DNA from: Thermodesulfobacteriota bacterium
GTDB taxonomy: Bacteria; Desulfobacterota; RBG-13-43-22
NCBI GenBank assembly: GCA_049520575.1
Contig: JBEKPQ010000002.1
Location: 32,834-96,833, forward strand
Direction: 5' to 3'
Length of the DNA: 64,000 nt
Part shown: positions 31 through 54,845 of the stretch, in pieces
Layout of the letters: the number at the start of each line of letters is the position of its first letter
How positions within the stretch are numbered: position 1 is the first letter of the stretch
Made by a program: the position numbers and the translations under genes
Notes under the pieces: generated by a model
Seen by the model: only the letters and a program-made list of their open reading frames with translations
Told to the model about the DNA's origin: nothing
Database searches by the model: none

Positions 31-1188
31 CTATACTCTTTCAGCCTTCAGCCTTTTTTTAGACATTGCCTTCTCAAAAACCTCTAACGTAATTCTGGCC
101 GAGGTTTCCCAGGAAAATCTTTTGGCCTGTTCCAATCCGGCCATCCTTAATTTTTCAGCCAGTCCAGGCTCATGCACCAGACGAAGCATGGTCCCTTGCA
201 AATCCTCCAGGCTATTAGGGTCAATCAATAATTCTGCCTCACCAACGACCTCGGGCATGGCGCTTTTCCGTGAGGTGATCACCGGGCACCCGCACTGCAT
301 AGCCTCCAGTAGGGGCAGGCCGAATCCTTCATACCAGCTTGGATAGGCCAAAAAGCTTGCGGCATTGTAAAAAAGGACCCTTTCCGAATCCGGTACATAG
401 CCTATCCAGTGGACTCGTTGTTTTAGCCCCGGTCTTTCCATCTCCTTAAAAATCGGTTCCCATTTCCAACCCTTTTGTCCAACCAGAACCAGATCATGGG
501 GGATTTGATCCAGTATTCTGGCAAAGGCCTTAAGCAAGGTCAGGATATTCTTTCGAGGCTCCAAAGTGCCCAGGAAGAGGATAAAAGGTTTTTTTAGTCC
601 ATGGGTTTTAAGAAGTTTTTCTTGGGCTTCGATATCCGATAAGGGCTGAAAAGCCTCCTCGGCCCCATGATAAACAACCGTTATCTTCTCTTCGGAAACC
701 TTGAAAAGGGTGATCAAATCATTGCGAGTGGCTTCGGAAACGGCCAAGATATGATCATAACGCCGCAACATGGCCGGGTAGGCCAGAAGGTCCAGCACCT
801 TTTGCATAGGATTGAAAGGAAAAAAATGGGGAAATAAGTATCGGGTCAAATCATGCACGACCATAACCGAAGCTACTCCGGCAGGGATTCGGGCCGGACC
901 GTAAAGCCCGGGTGAAAAAACAAGATCAAATTGCGACAAGACTCTGGGAACCACTTGAAGATTCCAACGAGTGACCCGGGCAGGAGGTCGGGGAAGGTCC
1001 AATATGACTTGCTCGAATTTTTCTTTAAAGGGCGTTTGCTCTCGGCGGTGATCAATCAGGACATAATGATGCTCAGGGGCCAGCCTTTTCATGGCCAATA
1101 GGACCTGATGGAGGTAATGATCCATGCCGGCCTTCTGTTCGCTGATCCCCCCGTAAATGACCCCGATTTTTAGAGAGTTGCCCGTCAT
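31..1188 (-). CDS. Glycosyltransferase family 4 (group 1)
   Basis: GT-B C-terminal motifs FLGTLEPRKN and YPSWYEGFGLPLLEAMQCGCPVITS. Confidence 0.9.
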   Translation of the reverse strand: MTGNSLKIGVIYGGISEQKAGMDHYLHQVLLAMKRLAPEHHYVLIDHRREQTPFKEKFEQVILDLPRPPARVTRWNLQVVPRVLSQFDLVFSPGLYGPARIPAGVASVMVVHDLTRYLFPHFFPFNPMQKVLDLLAYPAMLRRYDHILAVSEATRNDLITLFKVSEEKITVVYHGAEEAFQPLSDIEAQEKLLKTHGLKKPFILFLGTLEPRKNILTLLKAFARILDQIPHDLVLVGQKGWKWEPIFKEMERPGLKQRVHWIGYVPDSERVLFYNAASFLAYPSWYEGFGLPLLEAMQCGCPVITSRKSAMPEVVGEAELLIDPNSLEDLQGTMLRLVHEPGLAEKLRMAGLEQAKRFSWETSARITLEVFEKAMSKKRLKAERV

Positions 1189-3024: not shown

Positions 3025-4344
3025 TTATAGTAACACACCTTTCAAAGAATGGATATAAGCCTTTTCAATCCGAACCGGGGCCGTTTTCCCCAACAGAACC
3101 GTGGGGCCGGAAAAATTGACAATTTTATTGGTCCGGGTTCTCCCCATCCACTCCTGGGAGGATCTTTTGCTGGTTCCTTCAACCAATACAGTTTGCACCG
3201 TCCCTTCCATGGTCTGGTTCTTTGAAAGGGTGACTTTTTTCTGATAGGTCTGAAGCTCCCGTAAACGGCGACTCTTTTCCTCCTCATTCACCTGATTTGA
3301 AAAATTGGAGGCCGTTGTGTTTGGACGATTCGAATATTTAAAGGAGAACATATCATCCAGTTGAACCGCCCGGATCAGATCCATAGTCTCATCAAAATCA
3401 GCTTCGGTCTCCCCGGGAAACCCTACAATGACATCGCTGGTTATGGCTATGTCCGGGCATTGCTGCCTGAGTTGAGCAATCTTTTCCAGGTAAGCTTCAC
3501 GGGTATAACGCCGATTCATCTTTTCCAGTGTGCGATTTGAGCCGGCCTGGACAGGGAGATGAATATGTTCGCATAAATTTGAAATCTGCCCAAAACAATC
3601 GATGAGTTCCGGGGAAAGGTCCTTGGGGTGAGAAGTCGTAAAACGAATCCGCTCCAGCCCGGTAACTTTTCCCAGAAGATGCAACAAAGAAGCAAAGGGC
3701 ATTTCCCCCGTCCGATTTTGCCCATAGGAATTGACGTTTTGGCCTAAAAGAAGGATCTCCTTGACTCCATTGGCCGCCAGGGTTTCCACCTCGGAAAGGA
3801 TTTCCCGACTCGGACGGCTTTCCTCGGGTCCGCGGACAAAGGGGACCACGCAATAAGCACAATAATTATTGCAGCCCTGCATAATGGTCACCGAGGCTTT
3901 AACCCCCTGGGAAAAGTCGGAGGCCATCAACAATGACTTGAGAAATAGATCCCCCTGGTCCATCTCAATTCGGGACAATCGGTTTTTACCCCGTCTGACC
4001 TTTTCAATCAGGCCGGGAAGCTGATGGATCATTCGAGTTCCAAAGACCAAATCCAGGTGAGGCACTTTTTCTAATAGGCGTTCTCCTTCCTGTTGGGCCA
4101 CACAGCCCCCCACTCCAATAACCAGATCGGGATTTTGGTTCTTCAACCGTTTAAGTCGTCCTAAAAGGCTATAGGTTTTTTCCTCTGCTTTTTGTCGGAC
4201 GCTACAGGTATTGACCAGAATCAAATCGGCCTCTTCCATCTTCTGGGTAACCTGGTAATCAGCAGAGAGCAAAAGCTGGGCGATTGTCTGGGAATCTCTT
4301 TCGTTCATCTGACAACCGAAGGTGGCAATATGAACCTGCTTCAT
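3025..4344 (-). CDS. miaB: tRNA-2-methylthio-N6-dimethylallyladenosine synthase
   Basis: TFGCQMNERDS, NTCSVR, GCVAQ, radical SAM CNNYCAYC and C-terminal TRAM domain. Confidence 0.95.
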   Translation of the reverse strand: MKQVHIATFGCQMNERDSQTIAQLLLSADYQVTQKMEEADLILVNTCSVRQKAEEKTYSLLGRLKRLKNQNPDLVIGVGGCVAQQEGERLLEKVPHLDLVFGTRMIHQLPGLIEKVRRGKNRLSRIEMDQGDLFLKSLLMASDFSQGVKASVTIMQGCNNYCAYCVVPFVRGPEESRPSREILSEVETLAANGVKEILLLGQNVNSYGQNRTGEMPFASLLHLLGKVTGLERIRFTTSHPKDLSPELIDCFGQISNLCEHIHLPVQAGSNRTLEKMNRRYTREAYLEKIAQLRQQCPDIAITSDVIVGFPGETEADFDETMDLIRAVQLDDMFSFKYSNRPNTTASNFSNQVNEEEKSRRLRELQTYQKKVTLSKNQTMEGTVQTVLVEGTSKRSSQEWMGRTRTNKIVNFSGPTVLLGKTAPVRIEKAYIHSLKGVLL

Positions 4345-4678: not shown

Positions 4679-5347
4679 ATGATCCCCCTCAAGGATGACA
4701 ACCCAACCCAAACCTTTCCTCTGATTACCATTGTCATCATCAGCATCAATATTTTGGTTTATATCTATCAACTCACCTTATCGACTGAGGGACTGGAGAC
4801 CTTCCTCTTTCGCTACGGAGCCATTCCCTCTCGGCTATTACACCCTTTCTTTCAAGAGAATGCTTCTCGTCAAACCTTTCCCTTTGGATTGACCATATTC
4901 AGCTCCATGTTTCTTCACGGAGGTTTAATCCATTTATTCGGGAATATGCTTTATCTGTGGATCTTTGGAGACAACGTGGAGGATTACCTGGGACATGTCA
5001 AGTTTATCATTTTTTACTTGATGGCCGGCTTTTTTGCCGCCTTCATCCATACCCTTTCCGATCTCAACTCCCCCATACCCATGATTGGGGCCAGTGGGGC
5101 CATCGCCGGGGTCCTAGGGGCTTACCTGATCCTTTTCCCCAGAACCAATGTATCAACCTTGTTTATTTTTATTATCTTTTTCAAGATCATCAAGGTCCCG
5201 GCTGTTCTGATCCTTGGGTTGTGGTTTCTGATTCAGTTGTTAAACGCCGGCGCCGGAGGAGGCTCGGTGGCCTGGTATGCTCATGTGGGGGGGTTTCTGA
5301 CCGGGGTCATTCTAATTCGGACCTTCAAAGCGATCCGATTAAAGTAA
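4679..5347 (+). CDS. Rhomboid family intramembrane serine protease
   Basis: SMFLHGG, HLFGNMLYLWIFGDNVED, GASGAIAG and AHVGGF motifs. Confidence 0.92.
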   Translation: MIPLKDDNPTQTFPLITIVIISINILVYIYQLTLSTEGLETFLFRYGAIPSRLLHPFFQENASRQTFPFGLTIFSSMFLHGGLIHLFGNMLYLWIFGDNVEDYLGHVKFIIFYLMAGFFAAFIHTLSDLNSPIPMIGASGAIAGVLGAYLILFPRTNVSTLFIFIIFFKIIKVPAVLILGLWFLIQLLNAGAGGGSVAWYAHVGGFLTGVILIRTFKAIRLK

Positions 5348-5903: not shown

Positions 5904-6727
5904 TTCAATTTTGTTCGAAGGACTTCAAAATAATTTTTAAAAGGGGTTTTAATCAACCGGACGGATTTAGTCGCTTTTTGAACTCGCACCAGATCTCCGG
6001 CTTTTAAAGGATATCCTACTTGCCCATCAAAAGTCAACCAGACCTCACTGGCCTTAGACACTAAACGAATATCAATGACCGCATCGTCCTGGAGTATCAA
6101 CGGGCGGTTGGTCAGAGTGAAGGGGCAAATGGGTGTAATGAGAATGGTCTTCAAGGACGGATGCAGGATCGGTCCACCGGCGGATAGATTATAAGCCGTT
6201 GATCCCGTTGGGGTGGCTACGATCAAGCCGTCCCCGCGATAGGAGGTCAGAAATTGGCCGCCTATATTGGTTTCTATATCGATGATTCGGGCCAAAGCCC
6301 CCTTATTGACAACCACGTCATTTAAAAAAGGAACGACAGGAAGGTCTTCCTTGGCCCTAATAATCCGTCCCGTCAATACCATCCGATTTTCAGTCTCATA
6401 ATCCCCCTTGAGGATCTTTTCAAAAAGAAGACGGAATTCATCCAGGCCGATTTCAGTTAGAAACCCCAAACCGCCTAAATTCACCCCCAGGACAGGGGCT
6501 CCCAGATGGCCGTAAAGACGGGCCGCTTTAAGCAAGGTCCCATCGCCGCCTAAAACCACCACCAAATCCAAAGGTTCATCGGGCGGCCGAACTTCCAAGG
6601 CTGGAGGCTCTCCTTTTTCGTCCCAAAGAACTAAAATCCCTTTTTCCTTTTCCAGCCAGGTCTTGATTTTCAGGGCTTCTTGATAGGCAAAGGAAATATT
6701 TTTAACTACCAGTCTAATCTGTTTCAC
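5894..6727 (-). CDS. nadK: NAD(+) kinase
   Basis: LGGDGTLL, GGLGFL, NDVVV, DGLIVATPTGSTAYNLSAGGP; GTG start. Confidence 0.95.
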   Translation of the reverse strand: MKQIRLVVKNISFAYQEALKIKTWLEKEKGILVLWDEKGEPPALEVRPPDEPLDLVVVLGGDGTLLKAARLYGHLGAPVLGVNLGGLGFLTEIGLDEFRLLFEKILKGDYETENRMVLTGRIIRAKEDLPVVPFLNDVVVNKGALARIIDIETNIGGQFLTSYRGDGLIVATPTGSTAYNLSAGGPILHPSLKTILITPICPFTLTNRPLILQDDAVIDIRLVSKASEVWLTFDGQVGYPLKAGDLVRVQKATKSVRLIKTPFKNYFEVLRTKLKWG

Positions 6728-27791: not shown

Positions 27792-28380
27792 TTTTTTCCT
27801 CCTTTTCGATCAGATTTCAACTGGGTCATAATTATCAAAAGTGAATAAAGTGTCAAGGCAATAATGAAAGCTTTTTTAGGTTAACGCCTTTTTAGACCAA
27901 ACCGGTTTGATTGCCATTTTCTCTTCAACCTGCCGCCTGGCCACGAGATCGAAGCTCATGGCTGAAAGTTCTAAGGGAGTTTAAAGTATGGTGTTTGGAG
28001 TTCGAAGTTAAAATTTGGGGATAGAATCAGGAGCTCAAAGCTCGGCCCCATTAAACCCTTTCTGAAAGAAGGTAAGAAAAAATTTCTTCTTGATCTTTTA
28101 AAATGATTTGGACTGGAGATTCGAAATTAATCCATTTTATTGAAATTTCTTTTTCGGAAAAATTGATATATGATATAATTGAGATGATCAATCAGGTTTT
28201 TGCGGGAGATTTTTTTGGTATGCTTGAATCCTTTTTCAAGTTCTCCTTCGATCAATAATTGGCCCAGTTCAAATAAATTCTTATAGGTCAGGTCTCGACC
28301 CCCAGATTCTTTTTCTTTCGATAGATTAGGGGCCTGGATGGCCATGCTCATTTCTTGACTGAAAGATTTGAAGATTCCTT

Positions 28381-49450: not shown

Positions 49451-51295
49451 TTATTTTGGGATAGCGCGAACTTCTAAGGATCTCAGCCAATATTTCCCGG
49501 CAATCTTGCCCGGAGAGATCCTTATTTGTATTTGCCCATGTAAATCCTGGCCATCCAACAATGGTGCATAGGTTATATTTTTTCCAGGTTGTAATTCTTC
49601 AGAAAAACTATGTTCTTTATCATAATGTCGCATCTGTGGCGTACGATAAAATATCTGCATAATCGTCTTTTGAGGAGCATATAAGGCGACTCGGAGACCG
49701 TACATTTTGGTGGCGTCAATTTGTAACTTTGGAAGTTCGAAATATGGATCGTACCCCGTTGAAATCAAAGAGTAGCCATCTTTAGCAGGGGCAATTGTGA
49801 TTTGATGAAGCGGCCTCAATTCTTCCTTGTGCTGGTCGGGTAATTGATAAACCATATTCCACATTTGAAATTGTAATATGGGGACTGTCTTTAAACCTCG
49901 TTCCACCCGTTCTTGAATAACAATATCAGGAGAATACTGTTCGACATATCTTTCCAAAGTATCAAAATCTAGTTGCCATCCCGGATTTATATACAGTGCT
50001 TTTGAAAAATATTGAGAAATATAGGGTTGTAATAAGGTAAACATTGAATCTCGAAAGATTAATGCCGATGGTGCCGTAGAGTTGCAGGTCGTCATAAATG
50101 GAGTATCCCATTTATTTTCAGTTAATTCTTTTAGTTCTGTTCTATCACACCCTGTTAAAGGGTTTCGCAGCGTTGGAAAATTTTGCTCTTTTAAATGATC
50201 CTGAAGATTTAACATTTGTCCAATATCTCCGACCTTTCCCGTACTCCAGGAAAAATCTTTTGCATGGTACTGAATTGGACTGATACCCGGGTAGAGTTTG
50301 GTGATATACTGCATAATCTCATATTGGGCAATGGCAGCGCCAAAACTATTCCAGTGCGTGTCCGTTTTATAAAATAATTGCCCTTCTGATTTGGCCTGAA
50401 TGAGTTTCTGACGCAGGTCCAGAATCGGCACTTCGGAATTTTTCATATAGTCTAAAAATTGGTCAAGACGTGACTGCCTCCCAACGCGTGTCACGTGTGA
50501 TGGATAATATTCCCCATAAATTGAATGTTTCTCAGGGGGAATAACTACAAGATAGTGAATCCCCTTTCTCTTCAAATACTGAAAATTCGTTTCTAATATT
50601 GATTTCCATTGCCATAATTGAATAGGAGTTAATGGATCGTTTTTTCGATAATCTTCCATATTGCTCAAATCTTCTCCCCAAAAATACCAGCCATCCCTGC
50701 CTACCGTAATCTTGGAATTTGGGGGACTGCCAACCATAATCGACAGTAAATAATACCATTTGGCCAAATCATCGCGAAAGCCAAAGTGGTCGGCGAAAAA
50801 CTTTTCAAATTTTTCCGGGAAATTTATAAGGGTGCTTAGATTCCATTTCAACTCAGGAAATGGACAAAGTTTGCGTCTTTCAATCATTGATTCCGTTTGT
50901 TCATCTGTAAATACCAACGGTAAAAAGAGGAAAATGATAAATATGACGATCAGGAAGTGATCAAAAAAGGGTCGATTTCTGGATGTGGAGCTACCTGAAT
51001 TAATTTCAATGGCCTTTACCCCGTCGACTCTGAGGACCACCCATAATCTTTTGAGTAATCCGGTTAAAGTAGATCCATCTTTATAAGTTCCCAATGCCTT
51101 GAATATGAGACTAAGAAGGTATAAAAGAAAAGAAATTCGGATTGGATTAATTAATGATGTGAAAGAAACCTTGCTGCCAAATATCTCAGTCTTAATAGGA
51201 CCAAAAATGATGAACGAAAATACAGCAGCACCTATATACACTATACTTGATAATAGAAAGAGACGACAAAAAGTTAAAAAAATATTTTTTTTCAT
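49451..51295 (-). CDS. AlgJ/AlgX-family SGNH O-acetyltransferase with an extra N-terminal TM module and a C-terminal carbohydrate-binding-like domain
   Basis: FADHFGFR, VGRDGWYF, PEKHSIYGE, FYKTDTHWNSFGA, RDSM and ERVER; start taken at MKKNIF (51295). Confidence 0.82.
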   Translation of the reverse strand: MKKNIFLTFCRLFLLSSIVYIGAAVFSFIIFGPIKTEIFGSKVSFTSLINPIRISFLLYLLSLIFKALGTYKDGSTLTGLLKRLWVVLRVDGVKAIEINSGSSTSRNRPFFDHFLIVIFIIFLFLPLVFTDEQTESMIERRKLCPFPELKWNLSTLINFPEKFEKFFADHFGFRDDLAKWYYLLSIMVGSPPNSKITVGRDGWYFWGEDLSNMEDYRKNDPLTPIQLWQWKSILETNFQYLKRKGIHYLVVIPPEKHSIYGEYYPSHVTRVGRQSRLDQFLDYMKNSEVPILDLRQKLIQAKSEGQLFYKTDTHWNSFGAAIAQYEIMQYITKLYPGISPIQYHAKDFSWSTGKVGDIGQMLNLQDHLKEQNFPTLRNPLTGCDRTELKELTENKWDTPFMTTCNSTAPSALIFRDSMFTLLQPYISQYFSKALYINPGWQLDFDTLERYVEQYSPDIVIQERVERGLKTVPILQFQMWNMVYQLPDQHKEELRPLHQITIAPAKDGYSLISTGYDPYFELPKLQIDATKMYGLRVALYAPQKTIMQIFYRTPQMRHYDKEHSFSEELQPGKNITYAPLLDGQDLHGQIQIRISPGKIAGKYWLRSLEVRAIPK

Positions 51296-51305
51296 TTCTA
51301 AGTCT

Positions 51306-51443
51306 TTAAGGTAAATATGGAACAAGTTTGCGTCTTTCAATCATTGATTCCGCTCGATTGTCCATGAATACCAAAGGCAAAAAGAGACAAATTATAAATG
51401 TGACGATCAGGAAATTATCAAAAAGCCGGTGTTCTTTTTTCAT
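51306..51443 (-). pseudogene. 45-aa duplicated AlgJ N-terminus
   Basis: MKKEHRLFDNFLIVTFIICLFLPLVFMDNRAESMIERRKLVPYLP* matches NRPFFDHFLIVIFIIFLFLPLVFTDEQTESMIERRKLCPFP inside the next gene. Confidence 0.85.
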
Positions 51444-52922: not shown

Positions 52923-53308
52923 AGGGGCTTCCTTAATATAATTACAAAGTACTGCCTAATTTACTTATGATTGCTAACTTCTGGGTCAGCTTCAAGGCCG
53001 CCTTATGACTGAGTTGGGTTCATTCGTTAGTATAACGTTGGTGCAGAAAGGGCTTAGCTGACGTATCCTAATGAAACCGTTTTGACATAATGAACCCCAC
53101 CTCTCTCCTGAGAAATGGGGTTTATTTTGCTTCCATCGACACTCCCTTTTTAAAGGTTGCCAACAAGAAAACTTTATCAACTTTCTTCTATAATTCGTAC
53201 CCTTCTATTGCTAAAAAGTCAATAAATTTCAATCCCCTTTTCACTGATTACCGTTTGTACTCTTCTGATTTTTCCAAATCGAATTTTGAAGATTTCAGTC
53301 AACTATCT

Positions 53309-53865
53309 TTATATAGTCTCCATTTCTCTAAAGAAGGTTCGCTGAGAAAGCATGGCATAAATAACTCGGATCAGCTTGTGGGCCACGGCAAATAAAGCCT
53401 TTTGAGGGGCCAGGCACTCTTTTTTTCTCTTAAAAAAATATGACTTGAAAAAAGGGTTTTGACTCACCACGGATGCGGCCATCAGATAGATGGCTCTTCG
53501 CAAATGACGATTGCCTCTTTTCGATATTTTACTCTGGCCGACAAACTTTCCGGATTGATGGAGCGAAGGGTCCAATCCGGTAAAAGCGATCAGCTTTTTA
53601 TAAGAGGGAAAATCTTTAACCGTCCCCATCTCAGCTAAAAAAGAAGCCGCGGTATTCGGCCCCACGCCTCTAATGGACTGGAGGATATTAAAATCCTCTA
53701 ACCGGGTCTTCCGGCATAGATCCGTAAGCAACCGAGTCATTTCATCCAATCTTTCCTGAAAATGCAGCAGAGTAACGATCTTCCCCTGGAGGATGATTTC
53801 TTTGGCCGGACTGGTGGTGGCTATCGAGCTTCGAGCCGCCCTGAGTATATCCTCTACTAGTAGTA
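53309..53865 (-). mobile_element. IS110-family transposase, 5'-truncated remnant
   Basis: SIRGVGPNTAASFLAEMG, FTGLDPSLHQSG and SKISKRGNRHLRRA; frame stays open up to the RAYT IR at 53866; RuvC-like N-terminus absent. Confidence 0.88.
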
Positions 53866-54806
53866 GGGTCAGGTCTTTTATTTTGGTATTCTGGTGGTGT
53901 ATTTATCTCTTTTCCTTTACAAGGTTGCTTATCGTCGAATAATGCATGCCCAAATAGCTGGCAATTTCAACCTGCAAATAGCCATATTTTACGAGGGCCT
54001 CAACAATCTTCTTATCCCGTTTCAATTTGTCCATTTTTATACCTTCTTGGAAAATTTGGTCAAGGGACGGTCTGTTCACATAGCGTTGGCTCTTCGGAAT
54101 CTCATGTACGTCTTTATGCTTTTTTAGGTGATCCATGAGACTGTACACAAATTCATCATCTCCCAGTATAGTCTGCCCCTTAACTTCTGTCCAGATTGCT
54201 GTTTTTCCCATTCCTCCTTGCACAAACTGCCGGTATGCCTTCTCCGCTTTGGTTCTCTTGCCACTTAATTGGCCGAGTATCCAGTCGGTTTTCAAGCAGG
54301 GACGAGGTTTTCCCCTCCCTGCCGTACCACGATAGCTAGACCACTTCCAGTCTTCCGGCCGCTCAACCATCCCGGCACGGACAGGGTTTAAGACAACATA
54401 TCGACAGACTTCAAGCAAATGATTCTCCTTCTGGATAAGGATGGCCTTGTATCTCCCCTGGAAAAGGTGACCTACCCTTCGGTATCGCTTGTTGAAAAGT
54501 TGGGTGTAGACGCCGTTTAATTGCCGCATACCTATAGAGAGATTCCCGTCTGGGGTCTCGATGAGGAGGTGATAGTGGTTGCCCATAAGGCAGTAGGCAT
54601 GGCAGAACCAGTTATATCGGTGATTGACATGCTGCAGAGTATCTAGGAAAATCTTGCAATCTTGGTCGTCTTTAAAAACAGCTTTCTTTTCATTTCCCCG
54701 GCTGGTGATATGATAGACCGCTCCAGGATATTCTATGCGCAGAGGACGAGTCATGGATAGACCATATCATAGTCTTGTAAATATATCAAAATAAAAGACC
54801 TGACCC
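53866..54806. mobile_element. 941-bp element bounded by perfect 20-bp inverted repeats and encoding a Y1/RAYT transposase
   Basis: GGGTCAGGTCTTTTATTTTG at 53866-53885 and its reverse complement at 54787-54806. Confidence 0.85.
53903..54754 (-). CDS. REP-associated tyrosine transposase (Y1_Tnp/HUH) with C-terminal HTH
   Basis: MTRPLRIEYPGAVYHITSRGN, YCLMGNHYHLL (HUH), GHLFQGRY, YVVLNPVRAG and WKWSSY. Confidence 0.92.
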   Translation of the reverse strand: MTRPLRIEYPGAVYHITSRGNEKKAVFKDDQDCKIFLDTLQHVNHRYNWFCHAYCLMGNHYHLLIETPDGNLSIGMRQLNGVYTQLFNKRYRRVGHLFQGRYKAILIQKENHLLEVCRYVVLNPVRAGMVERPEDWKWSSYRGTAGRGKPRPCLKTDWILGQLSGKRTKAEKAYRQFVQGGMGKTAIWTEVKGQTILGDDEFVYSLMDHLKKHKDVHEIPKSQRYVNRPSLDQIFQEGIKMDKLKRDKKIVEALVKYGYLQVEIASYLGMHYSTISNLVKEKR

Positions 54807-54845
54807 CCTTTCCTCTTTATTTTGGATTAAACTTAAAGTGGTCCA

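Follow-up and report, generated by a model that had tools for sequence, protein, structure and literature searches.

RAYT (TnpAREP) genes have been described together with repetitive extragenic palindromes (REP) arranged in bacterial interspersed mosaic elements (BIME) or REPINs, an association called REPtron (Nunvar 2010, PMC2817692; Bertels & Rainey 2011, PMC3116915; PMC3333891; PMC8266576), and are usually viewed as domesticated genes, with "no evidence of tnpAREP mobility" (PMC8266576). Other RAYT-like genes have no REPs as flanks but terminal inverted repeats (TIRs), which are long and share the motif GGGGWSAS; these were named TIRtrons and TIRYTs by Di Nocera in 2013 (PMC3733652), and their TIR families occur, in some genomes only, as singles, dimers and groups (PMC3733652). 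Later on, 20 of 26 TIRYTs were placed by Quentin in 2018 in TnpAY1 subclass 2.1, equivalent to Group 1 of Bertels (PMC6006769; Bertels 2017, PMC5581495). The traits of this subclass are the motifs NH[YF]H and Y[IV]xLNP and a C-terminal domain similar to Bac_DnaA_C, HTH_23 or HTH_28 (PMC6006769). A full-text literature search for the terms TIRYT and TIRtron returned PMC3733652 and PMC6006769 only. Here we analyze a 941-bp unit of this kind, located at positions 53866-54806 of a 64,000-nucleotide stretch (the window) from a Thermodesulfobacteriota bacterium (assembly GCA_049520575.1, contig JBEKPQ010000002.1, positions 32,834 to 96,833), where it adjoins the 3' 559 bp of an IS110 insertion sequence (IS).

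An original prediction, made by a model from the letters and the open reading frames (ORFs) of the window, had presented this arrangement as contradicting established knowledge about RAYTs. That framing is not supported, since TIR-flanked RAYT-like genes were named in 2013 (PMC3733652) and classed in 2018 (PMC6006769). As judged from its sequence, the unit is a TIRtron, a new member of the TIRtron/TIRYT class with an arrangement already described. What the present comparisons add to PMC3733652, PMC6006769 and PMC5581495 is evidence of transposition of the whole unit, the lack of target-site duplications (TSDs), miniatures arisen by deletion, a tandem stutter at the junctions and the targeting of the repeats by an IS110 lineage.

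Organization of the TIRtron

The unit consists of one Y1/HUH transposase gene and two TIRs. As the original prediction had read from the letters, the exact reverse complement of a perfect 20-bp repeat, GGGTCAGGTCTTTTATTTTG (53866-53885), is found at 54787-54806, and one gene (53903-54754, minus strand, 283 aa) is the sole long ORF enclosed. In a repeat search the arms reached 24 nt with one mismatch (53866-53889 and 54783-54806). At three or fewer mismatches, the only copies of the 20-mer in the window were the two arms themselves; 0.04 copies were expected by chance and none of 100 shuffles gave two or more copies, so that a chance origin of the pair was ruled out. The tip of the 5' arm, GGGGTCAG, agrees with the published motif GGGGWSAS and that of the 3' arm, AGGGTCAG, is one base off. 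When the arms were folded singly no significant hairpin was obtained (z-scores of −0.5 to −2.2). A promoter-like site was predicted, as a consensus match only, to read into the TIRYT gene with its −35 hexamer inside the 5' TIR.

Beside the 5' TIR, the stretch CTCTTTATTTTGGAT (54814-54828) is like an inverted copy of the inner part of a TIR, to which it can pair through a stem of 11 bp, and is perhaps a third arm that has degenerated. Elsewhere in the window no further TIR copy was found, except that the 10-nt core alone recurs exactly, for the third time, at 28286 within TAGGTCAGGTCT (28284-28295), which is intergenic and lacks the remaining repeat. About 0.12 such cores are expected by chance, and this one is either a relic or a coincidence.

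The 283-aa protein was matched by Pfam Y1_Tnp (E 1.4e-12) and by NCBIfam REP_Tyr_transpos (97.9 bits, with a cutoff of 80). Its N-terminal Y1 HUH nuclease domain carries the HUH motif H60-Y61-H62 within N59-H60-Y61-H62, which is of the NH[YF]H type, and H60 and H62 were invariant across the 28 homologues aligned. The class-2 tyrosine motif Y---NP (Y[IV]xLNP) is also present as Y119-V-V-L-N-P, in which Y119 is the predicted catalytic tyrosine and Y119, N123 and P124 were invariant in the alignment. YVVLNP aligned with YIYINPV of the E. coli TnpAREP (4ER8), a sequence match that is weak but correctly aligned. This same structure was the best Foldseek match, followed by the transposases of IS200, IS608 and ISDra2 (E about 1e-5). 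As regards a C-terminal helix-turn-helix (HTH), Pfam gave only sub-threshold matches (HTH_38 with E 0.0027, HTH_3 and HTH_23), some close homologues carry a precomputed PF13384 or PF13936, and the AlphaFold model contains three confident C-terminal helices (residues 243-282) of a putative HTH. The mean predicted local distance difference test value of this model was 57, and it was used for the N-terminal fold and the C-terminal helices only. At E ≤ 1e-10 the protein has at least 8000 homologues, mostly of 282-288 aa, and many of them lie on contigs of about 1 kb.

Discrete ends and movement of the unit

Relatives were surveyed at 21 loci (L001-L021) with full-length proteins showing 44-90% aa identity to that of the window. 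At 16 of them the gene was bracketed by inverted repeats, both with the tip (T)RGGGTCAGGTCT, and flanks were unrelated in all these relatives. The metagenome-assembled genomes from which they come are labelled Deltaproteobacteria, Nitrospirota/Thermodesulfovibrionia, Thermodesulfobacteriota, Syntrophaceae, Actinomycetota and Acidobacteriota, covering five phyla. The outer 12 nt of the repeats were conserved and the inner part was lineage-specific and nearly the same in both arms of each element. In 205 non-redundant arms the information content fell to zero five bases outside GGTCAGG, position −1 being G in 98% of them and position −2 being G or A. Alignment with blastn of the window against L001, L003, L004, L161 and L126 recovered the unit alone, with 76-95% identity and borders starting at 53864-53866 and ending at 54807-54816. 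Finally, in the P0036 cluster, whose protein is 73% identical to that of the window, a 923-bp unit was present at four loci with 1-4 nt differences and unrelated distal flanks.

These comparisons bear out the compact mobile unit of the original prediction: copies with the same repeat tips do exist in other genomes and metagenomes, their flanks are unrelated, homology stops at the repeat tips, and the fixed syntenic position that would speak for an immobile gene was not observed among close relatives. From the sequences compared, the repeat-bounded unit is a discrete one that has been relocated as a whole to many sites unrelated to each other. A domesticated RAYT that stays at a fixed place, with flanking repeats that are local members of a REP-like family, is an unlikely account. 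It would agree with the habit of RAYTs, typically single-copy and vertically inherited (PMC5581495; PMC8266576), with a depth here of about one copy, and with the presence of the 20-mer in other genomes also as gene-less doublets and solo copies. However, close relatives with 88-95% DNA identity lie in unrelated contexts with homology ending at the tips, a sister lineage has four loci at least 99.5% identical, and the window holds one extra exact 10-nt core but no further copy of the repeat.

TSDs were sought in 54 non-redundant elements at lengths of 2-12, the ends being offset by 0-4, and the best flanking direct repeats equalled those of shuffled flank pairs. The lack of a TSD makes a staggered-cut DDE mechanism unlikely and fits single-strand HUH transposition. 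It is very improbable that the TIRs are the ends of a DDE-type element, or of a miniature inverted-repeat transposable element (MITE) moved in trans, with the Y1 gene as cargo. TIRs of 20-30 bp and MITE-like derivatives are indeed typical of DDE elements; against this, besides the missing TSD, the same tip accompanies the protein family across phyla and co-varies with it by lineage, and no other transposase gene was consistently nearby.

Recent copies have more in common than the repeats. All four P0036 loci read (G)ARCCTATAG before the 5' arm (GAACCTATAG in the shared-flank example), and the two with an intact 3' end both have CTATATGCT after the 3' arm. In copies A and B of the window lineage, treated below, the 5' arm is preceded by GGAAA(A)GG and the 3' arm followed by TACTAC. 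From the 6-10 bases that recent copies have in common outside the TIR core, the true cut sites may be placed 6-10 nt beyond that core, with flank bases carried along by the unit. IS608 and the E. coli TnpAREP cut at a distance from the structure they recognize.

Copies A and B in peat samples

In peat runs X4-X8 containing the window copy (A), a second copy (B), about 95% identical, was found with other flanks, namely its own 5' flank in L126 and its own 3' flank in L215 beyond position 5215 (L215:5216-7134). CCTTTCC (54807-54813) is common to the window flank and to copy B/L126, and this points to an end that is extended or has hitch-hiked. The 3' tip of copy B reads AGACCT-ATA-TACTAC versus AGACCT-GACCC-TACTAC in the window copy. 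Three contigs (L215, L220 and L222) join the 5' flank of the window locus to copy B sequence and the copy B 3' flank, with the switch from A to B at different internal points of the unit, and are either real recombinants or assembly artefacts. Loose contig ends at 53871 and 54813, considered as excision or circle joints, were rejected because they belong to the second copy and to the chimeric contigs.

Gene-less derivatives

A scan of metagenome contigs with the 20-mer gave at least 120 loci, and among the matches listed there were 11 gene-containing pairs, 24 gene-less doublets of 60-144 bp and many apparent solo arms, some of which are probably chance matches or have diverged partners. TIR copies were abundant in other assemblies; the JAEPEX01 contigs, for instance, carry several doublets. 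Doublets measuring 124-342 bp arose by internal deletion; in a recurrent type one TIR is joined to the last ~105 nt of the unit, and in another type the first 324 nt are kept. This ~105-nt piece, which comprises the last part of the HTH-coding region together with the 3' TIR, was seen in several lineages, at L003:306-430, L101, L134 (twice), L156, L175 and L185, and its retention suggests either a cis-acting requirement or an old, co-evolving MITE family.

The doublets of 83-88 bp consist of two arms of 26-36 nt and a spacer of about 30 nt, and were found in L110, L117, L120, L122, L138 and L154 (all of them JAEPEX01 contigs) and in L158, L166 and L186. Half of the ~30-nt spacer is conserved (GCCAAnnTGnTGnC...) and half is variable within one assembly, which is unusual for copies of a single MITE. 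Two doublets, of 88 bp and 124 bp, were folded and formed strong hairpins (z-scores of −9.6 and −7.4).

The IS110 remnant and its junction with the TIR

The ORF at 53309-53866 (minus strand) codes for the C-terminal half of a transposase of the IS110 family (Pfam Transposase_20, E 4e-27) and covers positions 178-341 of the 343 of NCBIfam transpos_IS110. DNA homology to L199 (85% identical) and L200 (72%) begins at 53854 and extends as far as 53296-53298. At the right end the remnant, L200 and L201 all have ATAGTTGACTG, with unrelated flanks beyond it. Comparison of L200 with L201 gave about 1417 bp for the intact element, so that about 860 bp have been lost here, that is the left end and the DEDD domain (the 5' ~60%). 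The full-length proteins called in relatives, of 312-314 aa, are N-terminally short, the first DEDD motif lying farther upstream in L200.

Intact relatives thus map the breakpoint to 53854, within 11 nt of the repeat tip. The original prediction had taken the IS110 frame to be open to 53865; the frame does run open from the stop codon of the RAYT across the repeat and on into the IS110, but the IS110 DNA ends at 53854, and the codons LLLV at the junction are encoded by the filler and lie outside the IS110 sequence. The missing 5' half, said to be absent from the other side of the unit, is absent from the entire 64-kb window. The filler with the first TIR bases reads TAC TAG TAG TAG and then GGTCAGG, a period-3 stutter of the first three bases of the TIR, and GTAGTA (53860-53865) is common to the filler and the copy B flank.

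IS110 products of about 190 aa in relatives are split or decayed IS110 genes, and none of those examined has a RAYT nearby. A recurrent module of an IS110 C-terminal fragment with a TIRYT was consequently ruled out, and the adjacency of IS110 and TIRtron is a one-off event, not a conserved module, because the fragments of relatives lack a RAYT. For the same reason these fragments do not tell against a truncation coinciding with the repeat. The ancestral allele was sought through two neighbouring genes, which yielded nothing but the arrangement seen here or chimeras involving copy B. In L215, the 3' flank has a gene for a 330-aa membrane protein and one of metallo-beta-lactamase (MBL) fold and does not contain the missing IS110 half.

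How the junction arose we leave undecided between insertion into the IS110 with loss of one side, deletion or strand transfer from the TIR tip, and an exchange between two copies. That general recombination between two TIRtron copies, or an unrelated deletion, made the junction with no part for the transposase is rather unlikely. In such an exchange, a copy located in an IS110 would have recombined with another copy and the IS110 halves would have been split. L215, L220 and L222, which join the 5' flank of this locus to copy B at differing internal points, point in this direction. These chimeras, however, may be artefacts of assembly across a repeat in which stretches a few hundred nt long are identical, the IS110 5' half was not found beside a TIR in any contig, and the junction filler is a stutter of the first TIR bases, as at other active-looking ends.

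Past the IS110 right end, the segment 53093-53295 had a peat-run contig depth of 15-74 versus about 4 nearby, with many loose contig ends and a 65-nt skip (53126 to 53192). It belongs to a multi-copy short repeat family with a single member in the window.

An IS110 subgroup inserted in the TIR core

A subgroup of IS110 with a 367-aa transposase had entered the TIR core, immediately following GACCTG(A), at four independent loci, the insertions being those of L207/L208 and L210 (in the P0036 unit), L080, L123 and L163. These four loci come from about 130 picked only for their TIR content. The left end of the inserted elements is conserved as TA(T)AAYCATAT..GGCACCTC. The sequences look like an IS110 lineage that targets TIRtron repeats, and IS110 elements targeting REPs are known, such as ISPpu9 (PMC12288879).

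These insertions give some ground to the converse course of events in the window, in which a TIR-targeting IS110 was inserted beside or into the TIR and later decayed from its 5' end. We consider this quite improbable. The IS110 of the window and the TIR-targeting one belong to separate subgroups and have 22% aa identity, nothing is missing from the TIR, the joint is at mid-gene within the transposase and not at an IS end, and the intact relatives of the same subgroup, L200 and L201, have flanks that are not TIR-like. Because of its other subgroup and of its mid-gene joint to the TIR, the IS110 of the window is not an example of TIR targeting.

Tandem stutter at the junctions

At many arms, the flank and the first 0-7 bases of the arm were present as tandem duplicates, both on one side of the junction, with a period of 3-19 nt, as in L001, where CCATAGGGGTCA CCATAGGGGTCA precedes GGTCT. 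Perfect junction-spanning duplications were present in 24 of 194 non-redundant arms versus 20 of 3880 random positions of the same loci (0.5%). When one mismatch was allowed, at periods of 3-20 nt, 38 of 199 arms were positive versus 2.6% of controls; the stutter thus affected 12% of arms when perfect and 19% with one mismatch allowed, compared with 0.5-2.6% of controls. Arrays reached seven units (L210) and both ends of the element were affected in L209. Loci with stutter include L001, L003, L006, L009, L011, L012, L015, L056, L087, L093, L115, L155, L164, L192 and L207-L211. In the window, TAC TAG TAG TAG (53855-53866) is a period-3 stutter, scored at L108, which is the same locus.

No motif was found at the left boundary of the stutters. 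Such duplications fit nicking, extension and rejoining by an HUH enzyme, and a model of nick, extension and strand transfer has been proposed for the tandem amplification of BIMEs by TnpAREP (Ton-Hoang 2012, PMC3333891). One cleavage site of the E. coli TnpAREP is TGCC/TGAT, in iREP-I (PMC3333891). The TIR tip on the corresponding strand, GACC/TGAC, resembles this site, which is a lead and not a result.

A model for TIRtron activity and its weighing

Taken together, the data make it likely that the TIRtron, one TIRYT gene with two TIRs, is mobile as a unit through an HUH single-strand mechanism, and that its junction with the IS110 came from an event centred on its end. In this model TIRYT would act on single-stranded DNA as the enzymes of IS200/IS605 and RAYTs do. 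The TIRs would pair as a panhandle (a hairpin in the short doublets), or each of them would be bound by the HTH domain, and the tip 5'-AGACCTGACCCY-3' of the element-ending strand would be presented to the HUH site. The tyrosine would then cut at the tip or a few bases outside it, the enzyme being kept on the 5' phosphate and the 3'-OH left free. End-to-end strand transfer would excise or copy the unit, with the donor resealed without duplication. In an aborted reaction, a host polymerase would extend the 3'-OH by between a few nt and about 20, the enzyme would then rejoin the strands, and a tandem stutter would be left. In the window, one end-centred event, either an insertion followed by one-side loss or an adjacent deletion or recombination from the TIR tip, would have joined the 3' TIR to the middle of the IS110 and removed its 5' ~860 bp.

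Several observations weigh against this model. The window arms, with no hairpin of their own, do not offer the canonical Y1 substrate, so that the panhandle or HTH step stays conjectural. At residues 106-226, which include the helix of the catalytic tyrosine, the structure model is poor. The right boundary of the stutter is spread from −1 to +7 of GGTCAGG and is not one nick site, a spread which ruled out deriving a single nick site from the boundaries. Empty sites, modelled by joining 80 nt of each flank for 102 elements, gave only self-matches among the fetched loci, and neither an excision product nor a circle junction was present in the assembled contigs of eight peat/wetland runs. In peat/wetland runs the depth over the unit equalled that of its flanks, so this copy is about single-copy and may be inactive. 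In addition, subclass 2.1 has about 1.9 copies per genome, with low identity between copies within a genome (PMC6006769).

As a broader and more tentative proposal, TIRtrons could form an active autonomous IS family of the HUH (Y1) type with TIR ends and a link from IS200/IS605 to RAYTs. They would be cut at or just outside the AGACCTGACCC tip with a few flanking bases carried along, their nick-primed stutters would be footprints of aborted reactions, and a dedicated IS110 subgroup would target the TIR core. This branch was catalogued in 2013 and 2018. The comparisons give sequence-level evidence of transposition of the whole unit without TSD and also point to a probable cut region, and the stutter would be a natural footprint of the scheme derived in vitro for TnpAREP. 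With about 0.9 kb, one protein and 24-nt ends, the TIRtron is a testable system for Y1 HUH ends that lack hairpins and for the origins of REP-like families.

Annotation of the window

For the window itself, the outcome is the annotation of one TIRtron and one dead IS110, whose features are listed in Table 1 with the TIR-core insertions of other loci. Apart from these, a 108-bp direct repeat (83% identical) was present at 50860-50967 and 51317-51424, around the end of a 629-aa ORF and the start region of an MBOAT gene.

Table 1. Features of the TIRtron and the adjoining IS110 remnant in the window, and positions of IS110 insertions in the TIR core at other loci.
Feature	Position	Strand	Description and evidence
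IS110-family remnant	53296..53854	(-)	C-terminal ~181 codons and intact right end ATAGTTGACTG; profiles, DNA homology
Junction filler TACTAGTAGTA, 11 nt	53855..53865	.	Between IS110 break and TIR
3'-side TIR	53866..53889	.	Tip TAG then GGTCAGGTCT if 53864-53865 are counted; repeat search and family-wide logo
TIRYT gene, 283 aa	53903..54754	(-)	Pfam/NCBIfam profiles, alignment, structure model
Promoter-like site TTGATA-17-TATGGT	54761..54789	(-)	TG before second hexamer; predicted, consensus match only
5'-side TIR	54783..54806	.	Minus strand from 54807 reads GGGGTCAGGTCTTTTATTTTGATAT; tip GGGGTCAG fits GGGGWSAS
Flank of 5' TIR	54807..54828	.	Sequence comparison with copy B/L126, folding
TIR-core IS110 insertions	L207:1330-1345, L210:1575-1590, L080:~5985-5995, L123 ~1015-1030 (reverse), L163 ~3760-3775 (reverse)		

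Comparison with known systems

Compared with the IS110 family, whose members are DEDD recombinases guided by a bridge RNA, the neighbouring remnant shares the Transposase_20 domain and the right end, but it is incomplete and is not part of the TIRtron. Elements of DDE type and MITEs differ from the unit in that no TSD accompanies it and the Y1 HUH protein is its only ORF.

With IS200/IS605 (IS608, ISDra2) the unit shares the Y1 HUH fold, a small size and the absence of TSD, as in single-strand "peel and paste" transposition. In contrast, the ends of IS200/IS605 are asymmetric subterminal hairpins and their motif is Y---Q, whereas the window unit has symmetric TIRs and Y---NP, and lacks both TnpB and a one-sided, fixed tetranucleotide target.

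REPtrons are similar in having a class-2 Y1 HUH enzyme with Y---NP, in the inverted copies of a short repeat that flank the gene and in the inverted doublets, which fold into long hairpins like REPINs; the BIME amplification model also fits the stutter. The window arms, however, are not GTAG-tagged, self-complementary palindromes like the high-copy REPs beside RAYTs proper and do not fold on themselves, yet the protein passes the REP_Tyr_transpos cutoff. The protein has an extra predicted HTH, and the TIRtron gene is found with its repeats at many sites whereas mobility of tnpAREP is not known (PMC8266576).

The closest agreement is with the TIRtrons and TIRYTs already described, with which the window unit shares the Y1 HUH gene, long TIRs at a similar distance from the gene, the GGGGWSAS tip, the motifs NH[YF]H and Y[IV]xLNP and a low copy number, with no structural difference. 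A C-terminal HTH is putative here, and TIRs as singles, dimers or groups were seen in other assemblies.

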